A stretch of DNA of 41,995 nucleotides from Nitrospirota bacterium (GTDB lineage Bacteria; Nitrospirota; UBA9217): assembly GCA_035623825.1 (NCBI GenBank), contig DASPSR010000055.1, positions 1-41,995 on the forward strand, written 5' to 3'. Within the stretch, counting starts at the first letter, position 1. Every line of letters begins with the position of its first letter. Positions 3,991-13,649 of this stretch are shown piece after piece. The translations under genes were made by a program, and so were the position numbers. The notes below the pieces were generated by a model. The model did no database searches, had not been told where the DNA came from, and worked only from the letters and a program-made list of their open reading frames with translations.

Positions 3991-4953
3991 CTACTTCAAG
4001 CTCTTAATAAACTCGATAATTTCATCCATCTCCTTGTCCGTCAGCAGTCCTTGCTGCGACGGCATCATTGGCGGGAACCCTTTGACACGGTCGAGCTCCG
4101 GATGCATCAGCGTCTGCTTGATGAAAGCCTCGTCAACCGTGATCTCCCGTTCCTTGCCGTCGCGTATCACGATCTCCTTTTTCCCGAGCAGTCCCTTGAA
4201 CGTCGGACCGATCTTCGGGGTCCCGTCCGTCGTATGGCACGCGACGCAGCCTTTTACCTGGAACAGCTTTGCCCCGTCAGGCGGGGCCATGACCCCTGTC
4301 GCAGCCGGCTGTTCGGCTTTTGCCATCGGCGCTGTCCGAGGCAGCTTGACCTCCTCGCCCTTGTACCAGGCATCGAAATCCTTCTCTGTCAGGACCTCGA
4401 CTTTCGTGATCATGGCGGAGTGGCCCATTCCGCAGTATTCGGTGCAGAAGAGGTCGTACGACCCGAGCTCGTCGGGCAGGAACCAGAGGTAGGTCTGCAT
4501 GCCGGGCACGCAATCCTCCTTGATCCGGTAGGCGGGGATGTAGAGGCTGTGGAGCACGTCTGCCGAGGTGATGAGGAGCTTCACCGGCTTGCGCACAGGG
4601 ACCCTGAGCACGGAGTACTGTTTCCCGTTCTCGTACTCGAAGAGCCATGACCACTGGCGGGCCGTGACCTTCACCGGCATGGCGTCGGGGGGGACCGTGC
4701 GCATATACTGGAAGCCCTTCCACCCGACAAAAAAAATGGCCAGCACGAGGATGGTGGGGATCACGGTCCACAGTATCTCGATGGGAAGATTCTCTCTTAC
4801 GTCTTCCGGATTGGGATTCCTCTTCCGGCTGTACCTGATCACAAAATAGATCATGACTGCCGTATTTAAAAAGAGAAAGGTGACCGAAATGCCCAGGATG
4901 AAGAAGAATACCTTGTCAGCAGGATTCGATAAATTCGTCCAACCGTTGATCAT
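3991..4953 (-). CDS. coxB: Cytochrome c oxidase subunit II with fused C-terminal cytochrome c
   Basis: Two N-terminal TM helices, QWSW, DVLHS, CuA motif CTEYCGMGHSAM, heme c motif CVACH and a distal Met. Confidence 0.96.
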   Translation of the reverse strand: MINGWTNLSNPADKVFFFILGISVTFLFLNTAVMIYFVIRYSRKRNPNPEDVRENLPIEILWTVIPTILVLAIFFVGWKGFQYMRTVPPDAMPVKVTARQWSWLFEYENGKQYSVLRVPVRKPVKLLITSADVLHSLYIPAYRIKEDCVPGMQTYLWFLPDELGSYDLFCTEYCGMGHSAMITKVEVLTEKDFDAWYKGEEVKLPRTAPMAKAEQPAATGVMAPPDGAKLFQVKGCVACHTTDGTPKIGPTFKGLLGKKEIVIRDGKEREITVDEAFIKQTLMHPELDRVKGFPPMMPSQQGLLTDKEMDEIIEFIKSLK

Positions 4954-4962
4954 AGCCCATTC

Positions 4963-5247
4963 TCACCTGTACCAGATATCGAAAAACGTAAGACCGATAA
5001 TGACCGTGATCGTCGCGACCGGGACGAAAAACAGTATTTTAAATAACTTATTTTCATACTTCAAGTGCATGAAGAACCAGAGCACGAGGCTGGCCTTGGT
5101 CGATGCGATCAGCAAATTGGCCAGCATGCTCCATTCCCCCATGCGCATCTCGGCAGCCTTGATCGTCACACCGGTGAGTACGAGCAGCGAGATCCAGATG
5201 AGAACGAATGTCTTTGGAGAAACGATGTGCTTGCTGCTTTCGGCCAT
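4963..5247 (-). CDS. coxD: Cytochrome c oxidase subunit IV
   Basis: Three TM segments; KASLVLWFFMHLKYE motif. Confidence 0.9.
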   Translation of the reverse strand: MAESSKHIVSPKTFVLIWISLLVLTGVTIKAAEMRMGEWSMLANLLIASTKASLVLWFFMHLKYENKLFKILFFVPVATITVIIGLTFFDIWYR

Positions 5248-9039: not shown

Positions 9040-10458
9040 ATGAATATTCTGATCATAAGCACCAACCGGAGCGCTTCCCCGGTGCCGGTTGTGCCGAATG
9101 GCGCATGTATGGTGGCAGAGGCCGTAGAGCGAGCCGGACATTCCGTGAAGGTGCTGGACCTGATGTTCGAACAGGATCCGGCACGTTCCATCGGGACGGA
9201 ACTCGGGAGAAGGGAATATGACGTCATCGGCCTTTCGATACGGAACATTGATAACAACGACATGCAGGCGCCGGTTTTTTTCATCAAAGACCTTCCACCC
9301 CTCATTGATGCCGTCCGCAAGAGCTCGGACGCGCCCATTGTCCTGGGCGGCGCGTCGCTTGCCGTCATGCCCGAGGAAATCCTGCGAGCGACCGGAGCGA
9401 CCTGCGCGGTGACCGGAAGCGGAGAGGTAGCGTTTCCCCGGCTGCTCGAGAGAATGGCGCGGCGCGATCCGTATGCGGACCTTCCGGGCGTGGCCGTGCT
9501 GGAAGGCGGGAAATGCAGTGCAAATCCGCCCCCTTCGCTTCCCGGAGCAGCGAGCGCTCCGGATTACGACCGGTGGTTGAACATGGGAGCATACCGCTCG
9601 CACTTATCGACGGTACCGCTCCAGAGCAAGCTCGGATGCCTCTTTCAGTGCGTTTACTGCACGTACCGGAAGATCGAAGGGAGCACGTACCGGCTGTTCG
9701 AACCCGAAGGCGTAGCAGAAGCGGCTTTGAGATTGGCGGCGGGGCTTAAGGACATCGAGTTTGTCGATAACGTGTTTAACGCGCCCTACGGCCATGCCCT
9801 GTCGGTATGCGAAGCTCTCATCCGCGCACGGCCCGGTGCGCGCTTTCAGAGCGTGGAGTTGAACCCCGCCCACTTCGATCACGAGCTGCTTTCGGCCATG
9901 GAGAGGGCGGGATTTGTGGCGATGGGGATAACCGTCGAGAGCGCGTCAGACCAGGTCCTCGCCGGGCTCAGAAAAGGATTCACGGCTGGCGAGGTCTATC
10001 GGACAGCCGAGATTGTTCGGAGCCACCGTCTGCCCTGTCTCTGGATCTTCCTGCTTGGGGGGCCCGGCGAAACGCATGACACCATCAGGGAAACACTTCG
10101 ATTTGCGGAGAAGTGCATCCGGCCGCAGGATGCGGCCTTCTTCAACATCGGCATACGCGTCTATCCCGGGACGGAACTCGAGACCGTCGCGAGAAGGCAG
10201 GGACTGCTCTCTGTCACCCCGGGCGAAATGCTTTCCCCTGTGTTTTACGCCTCGCCGGGAGTCGACGTCGCGTTGGCCAGGCGGCAGGTGAAGGATTCCC
10301 TTAATAATCACATGAATTTCATGAGCGGGGAATCCTTCAGATTCCCCCATCTTCCGCTTATTCATCAGATAGGACATCGGCTGGGGCTCAGAACTCCGCT
10401 CTGGCGATACACGCGCAGCATCCGGAGGGGACTTCGGTTCATTGGGATGGATGCATAG
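9040..10458 (+). CDS. Cobalamin-binding radical SAM protein (class B methylase-like; lipid-biosynthesis-associated type)
   Basis: N-terminal B12-binding domain (IGLSIRNIDN, IVLGG, GSGE), CxxxCxxC (CLFQCVYC), FVDNVFN and GGPGET. Confidence 0.9.
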   Translation: MNILIISTNRSASPVPVVPNGACMVAEAVERAGHSVKVLDLMFEQDPARSIGTELGRREYDVIGLSIRNIDNNDMQAPVFFIKDLPPLIDAVRKSSDAPIVLGGASLAVMPEEILRATGATCAVTGSGEVAFPRLLERMARRDPYADLPGVAVLEGGKCSANPPPSLPGAASAPDYDRWLNMGAYRSHLSTVPLQSKLGCLFQCVYCTYRKIEGSTYRLFEPEGVAEAALRLAAGLKDIEFVDNVFNAPYGHALSVCEALIRARPGARFQSVELNPAHFDHELLSAMERAGFVAMGITVESASDQVLAGLRKGFTAGEVYRTAEIVRSHRLPCLWIFLLGGPGETHDTIRETLRFAEKCIRPQDAAFFNIGIRVYPGTELETVARRQGLLSVTPGEMLSPVFYASPGVDVALARRQVKDSLNNHMNFMSGESFRFPHLPLIHQIGHRLGLRTPLWRYTRSIRRGLRFIGMDA

Positions 10459-10509: not shown

Positions 10510-11613
10510 ATGTCCTCCCTGCCCTATGCCGTTGGAGAGGAGCTTGTGCATACTCAGCATACAGGAACCGCACACATCGCCTCGGTCGCGGTCTCAACGC
10601 CGCCCTTTACCATCGACCAGATGGAGTGCGAAAGGCTTGTGCGGAAACATTATCAGGGAAAGCTGAACTCGCGCAGCCTGGCGCTCATTCGTACGCTTTT
10701 GTCTCATCCGAGCATCAAACGGAGGAGCTTTGCTCTCGATGATATCGAAAGCCTCGTAGACGAAGATCTGGACGCGAGGGTTGCCCGCTTCACGCGCTGG
10801 TCTCTGGAACTTTCGGCGCTGGCGATCAAGAGGTCGCTGGCACGGGCCGGCCTGGGTATCGGCGATATCGCCGGTCTGGTCGTGAACACCTGCACGGGCT
10901 ACATCTGCCCGGGCATCTCAACCTACCTGATCGAAAGGCTGGGCCTTTCACGCAGCGTGCATGTGTATGACCTCGTGGGGAGCGGATGCGGCGGCGCAAT
11001 ACCGAACCTTGAGATCGCTCAGTCCCTGCTCGCACGCAACGGAGACGCCGCCGTTGTGAGCGTTTCCGTCGAGATCTGCTCGGCGACCTTTCAGATGGAG
11101 AACGACCTCAGCCTGCTGCTGTCGAACACGCTGTTCGGCGATGGCGCCGCCGCTGCCGTGCTCTGGACGAGGCCCGTGGGATACGAGCTGGTGGCATCGG
11201 CCAGCCGGTATGTGCCTGAACAGCGCGACACCATCCGCTATGTTCACAGACGAGGGCAGCTCTACAATCAGCTTTCGCTCAAATTGCCTGACCTGGTGGC
11301 ACGGACTGCGGCGCAGGTCGTGGAAGATGTGCTGGAGCCGCAGACGCTCAAGCCCGCGGAAATCAGGCACTGGGCCCTCCACAGCGGCGGCGAGAAGGTC
11401 ATCAACGCCGTCCGCGATAAGATCGGGCTATCGGAAGAGCAGGTGCGCGCCACGCGCACGGTATTGGCCGAGCACGGCAACATGTCATCGCCAACGGTCT
11501 GGTTCGTGCTGAATGAGATCGAAAGGCAAGGGATCTCACCCGGCGAATGGTGCATCATGGTGGCCTTCGGTGCCGGTCTTTCGGCCCACGCCTTTCTCCT
11601 GCGGAAACGGTGA
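10510..11613 (+). CDS. Type III polyketide synthase (chalcone synthase-like)
   Basis: Catalytic triad motifs GSGCGG (Cys), ALHSGG (His) and GNMSS (Asn); also VEICS, LFGDGAAA and AFGAG. Confidence 0.93.
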   Translation: MSSLPYAVGEELVHTQHTGTAHIASVAVSTPPFTIDQMECERLVRKHYQGKLNSRSLALIRTLLSHPSIKRRSFALDDIESLVDEDLDARVARFTRWSLELSALAIKRSLARAGLGIGDIAGLVVNTCTGYICPGISTYLIERLGLSRSVHVYDLVGSGCGGAIPNLEIAQSLLARNGDAAVVSVSVEICSATFQMENDLSLLLSNTLFGDGAAAAVLWTRPVGYELVASASRYVPEQRDTIRYVHRRGQLYNQLSLKLPDLVARTAAQVVEDVLEPQTLKPAEIRHWALHSGGEKVINAVRDKIGLSEEQVRATRTVLAEHGNMSSPTVWFVLNEIERQGISPGEWCIMVAFGAGLSAHAFLLRKR

Positions 11614-11690: not shown

Positions 11691-11719
11691 TTGTAACGGA
11701 TGCAGGAAAAGGGTATAAT
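11691..11719 (+). promoter_or_regulatory. Sigma70-type promoter for the DUF5714-like gene
   Basis: TTGTAA-17 nt-TATAAT, ending 10 nt before ATG 11730. Confidence 0.55.
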
Positions 11720-11729
11720 TGAGTCCACG

Positions 11730-12512
11730 ATGAACGCGAAGAGGACCGAACACTGCATGGTCTGCGGATCCCGCCTTGAGTATCTGCGGCATTCCGTGGG
11801 GCAGACCTGCACCTATTGCGGCAAGAATGAAAGAGGGGCAATCAAGTGCCCCGCAGGGCACTTTATCTGTGAGGCGTGCCATGCCCTGGATGCCCGGAAG
11901 ACGATCGAGGAAATCGCGCTCACGACGCAGCTCAAGGATCCTGCTGCGATAGCCGAACTCATGATGAGCCACCCCCTGCTCCCCATGCTCGGCTGCGAAC
12001 ATGCCTTCATCGCCGCTGGAGCGCTGCTCGCGGCGCTCAAGAACTCACCATACGCAAAAGTCACCGATCAGGACATGCGGGAAGCCTTCGACCGGACCGC
12101 CAAGCAGGCCAGAGGCGGATACTGCGGCCTTACCGGGGTGTGCGGCATAGCGCCCGCCATCGGCGCCTGCTTCTCGGTGTTCCTGGGAACGCGGTGCGGC
12201 TCAGACACAGAGCAGAAGATCACGATGGACGCCGTGGTCAAGGTTTCGCAGGGCATCGCTGATCTCACGGGGCCAAGCTGCTGCAAGGCCTACGTGCGAT
12301 CGGCGCTCTCGGCCGCCGTGGCCATCTTCGCCGAGCGGTTCGGGATCGTGCTTCCCGTTGCGAGAGCTTCGGCCGTCTGCAGAGACAGCGACAGGCACCC
12401 GCACGGTTGCCGCGAAGAGAAGTGCCCCTATTATCAGAAGCCGAGCAGAGATATATTTACCGACCCCGCCAATACGAAGGATACCATCTGTCGCTCCTGA
12501 AAGCCCGTCTGA
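11730..12512 (+). CDS. DUF5714-like Cys-rich protein; candidate selenoprotein ending CRS-U-KPV (ends at 12500 if TGA is a stop)
   Basis: N-terminal CxxC knuckles, GCEH, GGYCGLTGVCG and GPSCCK motifs; TGA 12498-12500 completes CxxU and is followed by a SECIS-like hairpin. Confidence 0.8.
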
Positions 12513-12531
12513 TCCGTCCGGTCCGGACGGA
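12498..12531 (+). promoter_or_regulatory. Candidate bacterial SECIS element
   Basis: TGA, 12-nt spacer AAGCCCGTCTGA, then perfect stem TCCGTCCG-GTC-CGGACGGA. No U-tract follows, so it is not a typical intrinsic terminator. Confidence 0.55.
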
Positions 12532-12590: not shown

Positions 12591-12620
12591 TTGACAAAAA
12601 CACTCCTATTTTATTATAAT
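12591..12620 (+). promoter_or_regulatory. Consensus sigma70 promoter of the rubrerythrin operon
   Basis: TTGACA-18 nt-TATAAT with an A-rich upstream region. Confidence 0.8.
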
Positions 12621-12630
12621 CCTCGATATG

Positions 12631-12645
12631 TTGGAATCATTCTAG
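12631..12645 (+). promoter_or_regulatory. Putative PerR/Fur-family operator (7-1-7 inverted repeat)
   Basis: TTGGAAT-C-ATTCTAG just downstream of the -10 box, ahead of rubredoxin and rubrerythrin genes. Confidence 0.55.
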
Positions 12646-12675
12646 ACTGTAAGATGCATGGCAGGGAGGCCGTCT

Positions 12676-13131
12676 ATGTGTATGGATTATGCAAAACAAT
12701 GCAAGTGCGGGGCCCATTCCGCGAGTTTTAATTTCAGGGATTCACTCTTGCCCGGGGAAGTCATCAACGCACTATATTGTCCAGTGTGCTCGTCCGGTCT
12801 GCAGTATGATCCCCAGTCCATGGTACGGGACAACGGCTGGATCCTGCAGTTCGAGATGGACGTGGCGAGGTTCATGCTCAACACGCTCCCGGCAGGGTCA
12901 GCCGGGATCACCCCCGAGTACCTCTTTGATGAGGGGTACTGCACCTGGCGCGGGGTCACGCCGACGGACCACATTGATTCGCTCCGCGAGCGGCAGGAGA
13001 TCCTCAAACTCGCGAAAACCGAGCCGAAAAGATACTTTGCGGAACTCAAGACGTGGGGCAACAGGAGAATGGAGCGTCTGGCGCAGGAAGGCTGGCGAAA
13101 GGCCCGTGAAGGGGCGCCTGCTCATTCATAG
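12676..13131 (+). CDS. Hypothetical Cys-motif protein (CKC...YCPVC)
   Basis: GGAGG RBS before ATG 12676; first gene after a strong promoter. Confidence 0.8.
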   Translation: MCMDYAKQCKCGAHSASFNFRDSLLPGEVINALYCPVCSSGLQYDPQSMVRDNGWILQFEMDVARFMLNTLPAGSAGITPEYLFDEGYCTWRGVTPTDHIDSLRERQEILKLAKTEPKRYFAELKTWGNRRMERLAQEGWRKAREGAPAHS

Positions 13132-13169
13132 GGGGTCAACAGCCCGGAAAGGCACAGAGGACACTTGAA

Positions 13170-13649
13170 ATGGAAATCACCGTGGAGAAGATTCCGGGCG
13201 GCTTCAGCGTAGATGGGCTGGAGTTGAAGAACGGGAAGTGCGGATGCACGACGGTACTGCCGTGCTGCTACAGCTGGTCGAAGATCAAACGGTCAGGGAA
13301 TGCTTTCACCTTTGCCGGGAAAGCGACGAGCCCGGACAGCAAGGAAAATTTTACCTGGAGCTATGCCGTCAGAAAGGGAGATTATACCGTCGAGGTCCGC
13401 ATGGAGGATGCACAGGACAAGAAAATATTCTCCGGGTATTATCCTCCGCGCATCGAGGAATGGACGGAAAAAGGCTGGGACGTCGTGAGGAAGGACGGCG
13501 AGCGCCGGGATTTCGGCATGTGGCGCTGCTCGGCCTGCCGGTGGCTGTACAAAGAGCAGGAGCAAGGGGTCCCCTTTGAAAACCTTCCCGATGACTGGAA
13601 GTGCCCTTTGTGCAAGGTGGGTAAGGGATCATTCGAAAAGGTCGCGTAG
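13170..13649 (+). CDS. Rubredoxin-domain protein with an uncharacterised N-terminal Cys-rich domain
   Basis: C-terminal WRCSACRWLY...FENLPDDWKCPLCKVGK rubredoxin; N-terminal CGC-x5-CC. Confidence 0.85.
   Translation: MEITVEKIPGGFSVDGLELKNGKCGCTTVLPCCYSWSKIKRSGNAFTFAGKATSPDSKENFTWSYAVRKGDYTVEVRMEDAQDKKIFSGYYPPRIEEWTEKGWDVVRKDGERRDFGMWRCSACRWLYKEQEQGVPFENLPDDWKCPLCKVGKGSFEKVA

Follow-up and report, generated by a model that had tools for sequence, protein, structure and literature searches.

The window analysed here covers positions 1–41,995 of contig DASPSR010000055.1, and the loci numbered with an L below are GTDB relatives of its open reading frame at 11730–12512. Frame and homologue comparison predict that this frame is a full coding sequence on the forward strand for a protein of 260 amino acids ending in CRS-U-KPV-stop. 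Read from 11730, the frame runs for 256 codons, ending DTICRS, up to a TGA at 12498–12500. The codon for C254 lies at 12489–12491, C-R-S stands directly before the TGA, and AAG CCC GTC and a second TGA at 12510–12512 follow.

The N-terminal part of the protein (11754–11879, forward strand) is a Cys/His zinc-ribbon region containing C9, C12, C27, C30, C40, H44, C47 and C50. It gives a weak match to PF07191, with the weak Pfam zinc ribbon spanning residues 5–60, and its Cys and His residues are invariant or nearly invariant in the homologue alignment (A1). The helical DUF5714 core lies at 11904–12434 on the same strand (PF18978, residues 59–235, E = 6e-49), and a score of 166.3 bits over the full model, against a gathering score of 26.2, qualifies the window protein as a member of this family. 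Model pLDDT and the alignment mark the rest of the protein (12435–12509, forward strand) as a low-confidence linker and a tail carrying C254-x-x-U257-K-P-V.

One scan of GTDB genomes yielded 152 related stretches, 80 of which were kept for all locus counts. The tail with its Cys motif is present in 35 sequences, namely the window and 34 of the 80 loci, and nearly all of these are from Nitrospirota. A 36th sequence, L012, shares the tail but lacks its Cys and is counted apart. From the last core Cys motif to the end of the tail there are 30–31 amino acids in the main tail clade.

A promoter scan placed a sigma70-type promoter (TTGTAA-17-TATAAT) at 11691–11719 on the forward strand with its –10 box 10 nt upstream of the ATG, and the transcript of the DUF5714 gene appears to be near-leaderless. 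The start at 11730 is supported because the –10 box of this promoter falls after the ATG at 11700; the latter, which would open a longer reading frame, was rejected as lying upstream of the –10 box. There is an in-frame TAA at 11694–11696 and no Sec codon upstream in the window gene. Among the 34 tail loci tested, 32 have a –10-like hexamer 4–12 nt 5' of an in-frame ATG, a count made without a shuffle control. Most of the tail genes have no Shine–Dalgarno motif, as would be expected of leaderless or near-leaderless transcription, and many database homologues carry false N-terminal extensions that pass through the promoter.

Upstream of the DUF5714 gene are a gene for a B12-binding radical SAM protein (9040–10458; TIGR04072-like, below cutoff) and, between the two, a type III PKS gene (10510–11613). 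The DUF5714 gene adjoins a divergent sco-cox operon. Downstream is a separately promoted rubredoxin/rubrerythrin/flavodoxin cluster. At 12591–13649 a perfect sigma70 consensus promoter (12591–12620) precedes a Cys-rich ORF of 157 amino acids (12658–13131) that has no Pfam or NCBIfam match. Next comes a 159-amino-acid protein in which an N-terminal part with CGC-x4-CC is fused to rubredoxin, and rubrerythrin and flavodoxin-like genes follow. Neighbours in the 36 tail loci include PKS (17), radical SAM (15) and cox2 (13) genes and a downstream HD-GYP gene (14), and the rubrerythrin cluster is found in only 3 of the 36. Roughly half of the tail loci have the radical SAM and PKS genes as a pair between sco-cox and the DUF5714 gene; this pair is likely to belong to an alkyl-resorcinol/pyrone-type lipid pathway. 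In L025 (694–5272) the neighbours of the tail gene are, by motif, presumably a heavy-metal ATPase, a YHS-fused thioredoxin reductase and a TlpA-type protein.

The TGA codon and the hairpin behind it

The earlier note had proposed that the apparent stop conceals a tail reading CRS-U-KPV. Comparison bears this out. At the position aligned with 12498–12500 (forward strand; U257) the codon is TGA in 35 of 35 tail sequences, with no TAA or TAG among them, and the next stop is free to vary: found 1–4 codons further on, it is TGA in 26, TAA in 7 and TAG in 2. The first codon after the TGA encodes K (25), R (7) or T (3) through six different codons. The second encodes Pro in 30 of the 35, and all four Pro codons are used. 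The codons past the TGA thus seem to behave as coding sequence, with one to four codons only to judge by. A C-U in place of CxxU occurs in L011, L079 and L080 and in 3 of 120 protein matches. In L012 (6112–6166) the end reads S-P-S-TGA-TAG with the hairpin intact and the Cys lost, which could mean that the Sec is terminal or that the site is decaying.

As a comparison, the 23 short family members without the tail (L012 set apart) end in TGA (12), TAG (8) or TAA (3), and TGA is the commonest stop in the loci, where it closes 135 of 252 long ORFs in a count that takes in the family genes. In a core-only tree, 34 tail sequences form one clade with support of 100/99. Since the tail sequences form one clade and probably share one origin, the 35 of 35 TGA codons do not amount to 35 independent trials. 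The best control is the second stop, which changes freely inside the same clade. We also considered the second TGA as a second Sec codon and rejected it: stops at this place lie 6–15 nt from the hairpin loop, and it is not taken to be recoded because it is nearer to the loop than the 16–37 nt model permits. The TGA at 12510–12512 (forward strand), which is 7 nt before the loop and gives way to TAA or TAG in 9 of the 35 tail sequences, is the candidate true stop.

A perfect 8-bp hairpin beginning 12 nt past the first TGA and having no U-tract had also been described in the earlier note, and it is present at 12513–12531 on the forward strand. Fold, covariation and published criteria mark it as a putative bacterial SECIS (bSECIS) wholly in the 3' UTR. 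It reads TCCGTCCG-GTC-CGGACGGA and is followed directly by GATATGGGAC. G-G-U stands at its loop, which is about 19–20 nt after the Sec codon. The local fold of the window has z = –2.59, with 3 of 200 shuffles equally stable. The bSECIS criteria given in the legend to Fig. 2 of PMC13188914 are a loop of 3–9 nt, a stem of 4–16 bp, a G in the first two loop positions, a spacing of 16–37 nt and an energy of –7.5 kcal/mol or lower. The window hairpin, with 8 bp, loop GTC, 20 nt and –12.5 kcal/mol, lies within all of these limits. Of the tail sequences, 33 of 36 pass the same filter. Among the other stops of these loci 24 of 536 pass (for TGA stops, 10 of 231), and for the terminal stops of family members lacking the tail the figure is 0 of 23. 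In the three failing tail sequences the hairpin is the same but has a 5-bp stem and –6.2 kcal/mol, and they miss on energy only. A loose filter was also passed by 11 other TGA-plus-hairpin sites among the 141 TGA-ending ORFs of the window, none of them behind a Cys motif at a recognised gene end.

Homologues keep the hairpin, as the proposal in the earlier note demanded, and its stem shows compensatory changes. When 34 of the 36 tail sequences are aligned (L020 and L021 were omitted as near-copies of L019), the 6-bp stem is 97.1% paired, and three of its six pairs have changed on both sides. The covariation score was reached by 0 of 500 shuffles, and slid controls all scored lower. In the 34 sequences measured the loop starts 16–22 nt after the first TGA and 6–15 nt after the second stop. 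A U-run (at least 5 T in 8 nt) follows the hairpin in 1 of 36 tail sequences, L011, and the terminator scan of the window did not score 12513–12531 as an intrinsic terminator. A covariance model (R1) found the window and two held-out tail loci at 48–55 bits. A search with R1 did not recover the MbdU and SelD SECIS elements, a result that says nothing on SECIS class because the model spans coding flank.

Annotation pipelines had been expected to truncate the protein, and they have: the best 120 of 1129 protein matches all stop at the aligned Sec position, ending in Cxx (113), Cxxx (4) or C (3). Of the two homologue endings to look for according to the earlier note, CxxTGA is found with the conserved hairpin and CxxC did not turn up. 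No Cys form (CxxC-KP) occurs among the best 120 of 1129 protein matches or in the 80 of 152 GTDB loci, and 0 of 14 matches of a search with the tail region read beyond the Sec position. The usual evidence of a Sec/Cys pair is thus missing from the sequences searched, which counts against recoding. A search for longer fused forms scored none, which is weak evidence, and known long fusions are present in a separate homologue list. No selA, selB, selC or selD was found in the window (ARAGORN, no tRNA; Rfam, no match; NCBIfam, 30 ORFs), and the SelD motif is absent from all tail loci. Nitrospirae have selB and selC according to the review PMC13188914. The comparisons of codon, hairpin and second stop strongly support the idea that the TGA at 12498–12500 is recoded as Sec in a SelB-dependent manner, and we regard this as very probable.

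The core and the relatives with an N-terminal arm

In an alignment of 79 diverse family sequences C184, C217, C227 and C232 are invariant, and C185 (78), C138 (77), C132 (75), R122 (73), E90 (67), H91 (66) and K186 (65) are nearly or largely so. The GCEH motif singled out in the earlier note is therefore conserved in part: E90 and H91 hold up across the family, whereas C89 is clade-specific, being Cys in 22 of the 79. The predicted model has a mean pLDDT of 81 in full and 95 for the core alone, with about 50–60 for residues 241–260, and it leaves the tail unplaced.

Structure searches with both models gave matches whose agreement is suggestive of a weak resemblance to the Fe-S domains of CyuA and serine dehydratase. 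CyuA was the top VIA-align match of the full model (Z 7.7, rmsd 4.0, 140 aligned) and of the core model (Z 6.9, rmsd 4.5, 136 aligned). The top nine for the core also hold cis-aconitate decarboxylase (5.4), the split-Soret cytochrome 1H21 (Z 5.2), IDS epimerase, PrpD and serine dehydratase 4RQO (Z 4.5). All VIA-align Z-scores are below 8, a range that the tool calls common. Foldseek returned nothing at E ≤ 0.001 with either model, a sequence search of the PDB gave only weak zinc-finger-type matches, and HMM searches gave no match to the CyuA/serine dehydratase fold. The ESM Atlas has the truncated sequence of 256 amino acids and no usable look-alike outside PF18978. PF09719 (C_GCAxxG_C_C), the Pfam family of which we take 1H21 to be a member, is matched by 21 of the 79 family sequences at E ≤ 0.1 (best 1.2e-4), and DUF5714 (PF18978) would accordingly be distant kin of PF09719 and split-Soret cytochrome c, with a Pfam model that stops short of the tail. 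A fusion scan of 34 of 150 listed matches, picked mostly by length, found distant DUF5714 members joined to radical SAM plus methyltransferase, to TusA, to LMWPc, to DUF2284 and to other domains.

According to section 18 of PMC12647591, CyuA, serine dehydratase, cis-aconitate decarboxylase and IDS epimerase share one fold. According to the same paper, three Cys bind a [4Fe-4S] cluster in CyuA and serine dehydratase. The three-Cys site of these enzymes and their catalytic Cys-x-Glu, which lies close to the N-terminus of the domain, would resemble C132/C138/C184 and C89-E90-H91 of the window protein only loosely. The window protein differs from them in being much smaller and in having extra zinc modules, with 8–9% identity and an rmsd of 4.5–5.5 Å.

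One predicted selenoprotein, MbdU, is already known in the DUF5714 family, and its Sec lies at other positions. It is listed with motif CU and two Sec in a table of PMC13188914, which gives Haft & Tolstoy 2025 as the source. MbdU, the metal-binding double selenoprotein (NF045648), is the sole NCBIfam match of the window protein, at 362.8 bits against a cutoff of 600 (E = 2.8e-108; residues 3–241 on model positions 35–272 of 468). A C-terminal DUF2284 domain with a second Sec is absent from the window protein, the reading of which ends at 12512, and the ORF at 12658 has no Pfam or NCBIfam match.

Read through their TGA codons, 43 of the 45 other loci have an N-terminal arm with C-U, given as G-U or U-D-U in 3 of the 43. 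The exceptions are L059, cut by a contig edge, and L039, which has no arm and has its U in a fused AhpD-like part. A GG-type hairpin lies 17–24 nt behind the U of the arm in 40 of 43, and 21 also have a second TGA inside a DUF2284 domain, which is the MbdU layout. In L058 and L067, where the arm reads U-D-U, one hairpin lies at SECIS distance from both Sec (24 and 18 nt). Neighbours in the 45 loci are ArsR (24), TauE (6) and Sec-type SelD (4); ArsR is absent from 36 of 36 tail loci. Several single loci stand out. L039 (5781–6990) has DUF5714 fused to an AhpD/CMD-like domain with C-Q-P-U and also ends D-C-U-T-P, L077 has a DUF5714 gene and then an AhpD/CMD-like gene with C-Q-P-U, and in L078 (6709–6808) a Sec-containing selD comes directly after an N-arm DUF5714 gene.

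By contrast with the 43 of 45, the N-terminal arm is present in 0 of 36 tail sequences (L040 is cut and L018 frameshifted). Both kinds of gene occur in assembly JAJYKN01, which has the tail gene L019 and the MbdU-like gene L059 with TGA and hairpin. In the core-only tree L079 and L080, which end G-x-C-U-[RK]-stop, fall apart from the 34-sequence clade on a long branch. We dropped the idea that the C-terminal Sec arose twice independently because a tree with all 36 tail sequences together is better by 4.67 lnL (p-AU 0.61). This leaves one independent pair, so the exclusion between N-terminal arm and C-terminal tail has no statistical weight as co-evolution. The best reading may be that the arm changed position once, in either direction. 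Among the tail loci themselves, L022 has at 4679–4966 a partial duplicate of the tail gene's 5' end, and the copy in L018 (6001–6781) is frameshifted near its start. L003 has a tail gene with radical SAM and PKS neighbours on a contig labelled Betaproteobacteria and is nested among Nitrospirota, which is probably mis-binning or transfer.

What the tail may do

We propose that SelB, acting on the GG(U)-loop hairpin behind the real stop, would recode the TGA at 12498–12500 as Sec. Three residues, K-P-V, would be added after U257 and translation would end at the second TGA to give a selenoprotein of 260 amino acids. In this protein zinc-ribbon modules would surround a helical core in which Cys, Glu and His form a metal site, and the weak fold match and the conserved Cys suggest that this site is probably Fe-S like that of CyuA and serine dehydratase. 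A flexible tail of about 25 residues could swing the CxxU pair to the core site or to a partner, where the pair might pass electrons, or might deliver or take away a thiophilic ligand (sulfur, metal or metalloid). The tail would correspond, at the other end of the protein, to the N-terminal C-U arm found in MbdU-type relatives. We consider this model as a whole, a selenoprotein whose mobile Cys/Sec arm serves a metal site, to be likely. For the narrower claim that the arm works on the protein's own core metal site, in redox or ligand transfer, we put the chances at about even. Metal/metalloid or sulfur handling is the most likely substrate class.

A protein ending in C-x-S/T at an ordinary stop, with the hairpin a conserved 3' UTR element such as a terminator or RNase barrier, would fit the frequency of TGA among the stops of these loci, the relatedness of the tail sequences, the place of the hairpin directly behind the second stop, the U-run in L011 and the lack of a Cys form among the homologues searched. 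It does not easily account for a first stop that is fixed while the second varies, for K/R-P kept through synonymous changes, for a U-tract confined to one locus, for loop Gs and a spacing that fit bSECIS, or for the missing hairpin at the stops of tail-less relatives, and we hold it to be very improbable. Alternatively, Sec may be inserted and the tail may serve another protein, the core holding structural zinc only; the tail could act in Sco/cytochrome c oxidase assembly, for example, as thiol reductant or copper ligand, or serve the B12 radical SAM enzyme. The tail gene keeps its place by the divergent sco-cox operon or behind the B12-radical SAM/PKS pair, and CxxU tails are typically redox motifs according to PMC3281104. 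However, a promoter of its own precedes the DUF5714 gene, shared gene order inside a single clade may simply have been inherited, L025, L029, L038, L079 and L080 have no PKS, radical SAM or cox neighbours, and the conserved E-H, R, C, C and CC-K of the core look like an active site. A partner outside the protein thus seems to us rather doubtful.

The fold neighbours CyuA and 4RQO raise the idea that the Sec tail caps a catalytic Fe-S cluster, either inhibiting or protecting it, with selenium supply tuning the enzyme and with full-length and UGA-terminated forms differing in activity. In the Legionella serine dehydratase the C-terminal Cys458 binds and caps the fourth Fe, as section 18 of PMC12647591 describes, and termination at the first TGA would leave the core of the window protein intact. 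Against a cap stand the weak Z-scores, a cluster that is itself putative, a CxxU pair that exceeds what a cap needs, and the N-terminal arm of the relatives, which would need the same role; we judge it improbable. A broader reading, in which the arm moved from the N- to the C-terminus and the core is a minimal CyuA-like Fe-S enzyme serviced or capped by the selenolate and made in two UGA-dependent forms, is possible and on balance unlikely. If it were true, there would be a selenoprotein subfamily free of Cys forms and undescribed so far, in which one UGA, by termination or recoding, gives two functional forms.

With recoding as the preferred reading, a selenoprotein subfamily of Nitrospirota that the database proteins miss would be added. 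Searches for Cys/Sec pairs would miss it because no Cys form turned up. Its SECIS would lie outside the coding sequence and would thus show an unconstrained Nitrospirota SECIS, CCGTCC-GGT(C)-GGACGG, convenient for reporter work. The N-arm and C-tail proteins would form a natural experiment on the role of a mobile Sec arm, and the tail protein would offer a way into DUF5714, a domain that is widespread and uncharacterised.

Comparison with known selenoproteins

Our literature search under the name DUF5714 found no papers and no described function. The C-terminal form does not appear in the portion of the review PMC13188914 available to us, which lists only the two-Sec MbdU with CU, or in the accessible text on deep-Sep (PMC12013277) and BSepDB (PMC13326102); Haft & Tolstoy 2025 may mention it. 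Similar ends are known elsewhere. The SELENOO-type motif Cxx[CU]xx> and the tails of TrxR, SelK and SelS have C-x-x-U 2–4 residues from the end, as here, and several tail homologues end C-V-T-U-K-P, close to the human CVTUSS cited in PMC3281104. The fold is unrelated to that of SELENOO and the motif would be convergent; SELO has many CxxC forms, unlike the tail family as found here.

The closest known system is within DUF5714 itself. MbdU has the same zinc ribbon and DUF5714 core as the window protein, and MbdU-type loci, which are 50–62% identical, have the N-terminal C-U, a Sec in DUF2284 and the same GG-loop kind of SECIS. The window protein has neither the N-terminal C-U arm nor the DUF2284 domain, and it has one Sec rather than two. 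Its neighbourhood is different (no ArsR) and it belongs to a separate clade. Its Sec is in a C-terminal CxxU-KP(x) tail with the SECIS in the 3' UTR, whereas the SECIS for the N-terminal C-U of MbdU is inside the coding sequence. On these comparisons the window protein appears to be a DUF5714 selenoprotein other than MbdU, with its Sec at the opposite end.
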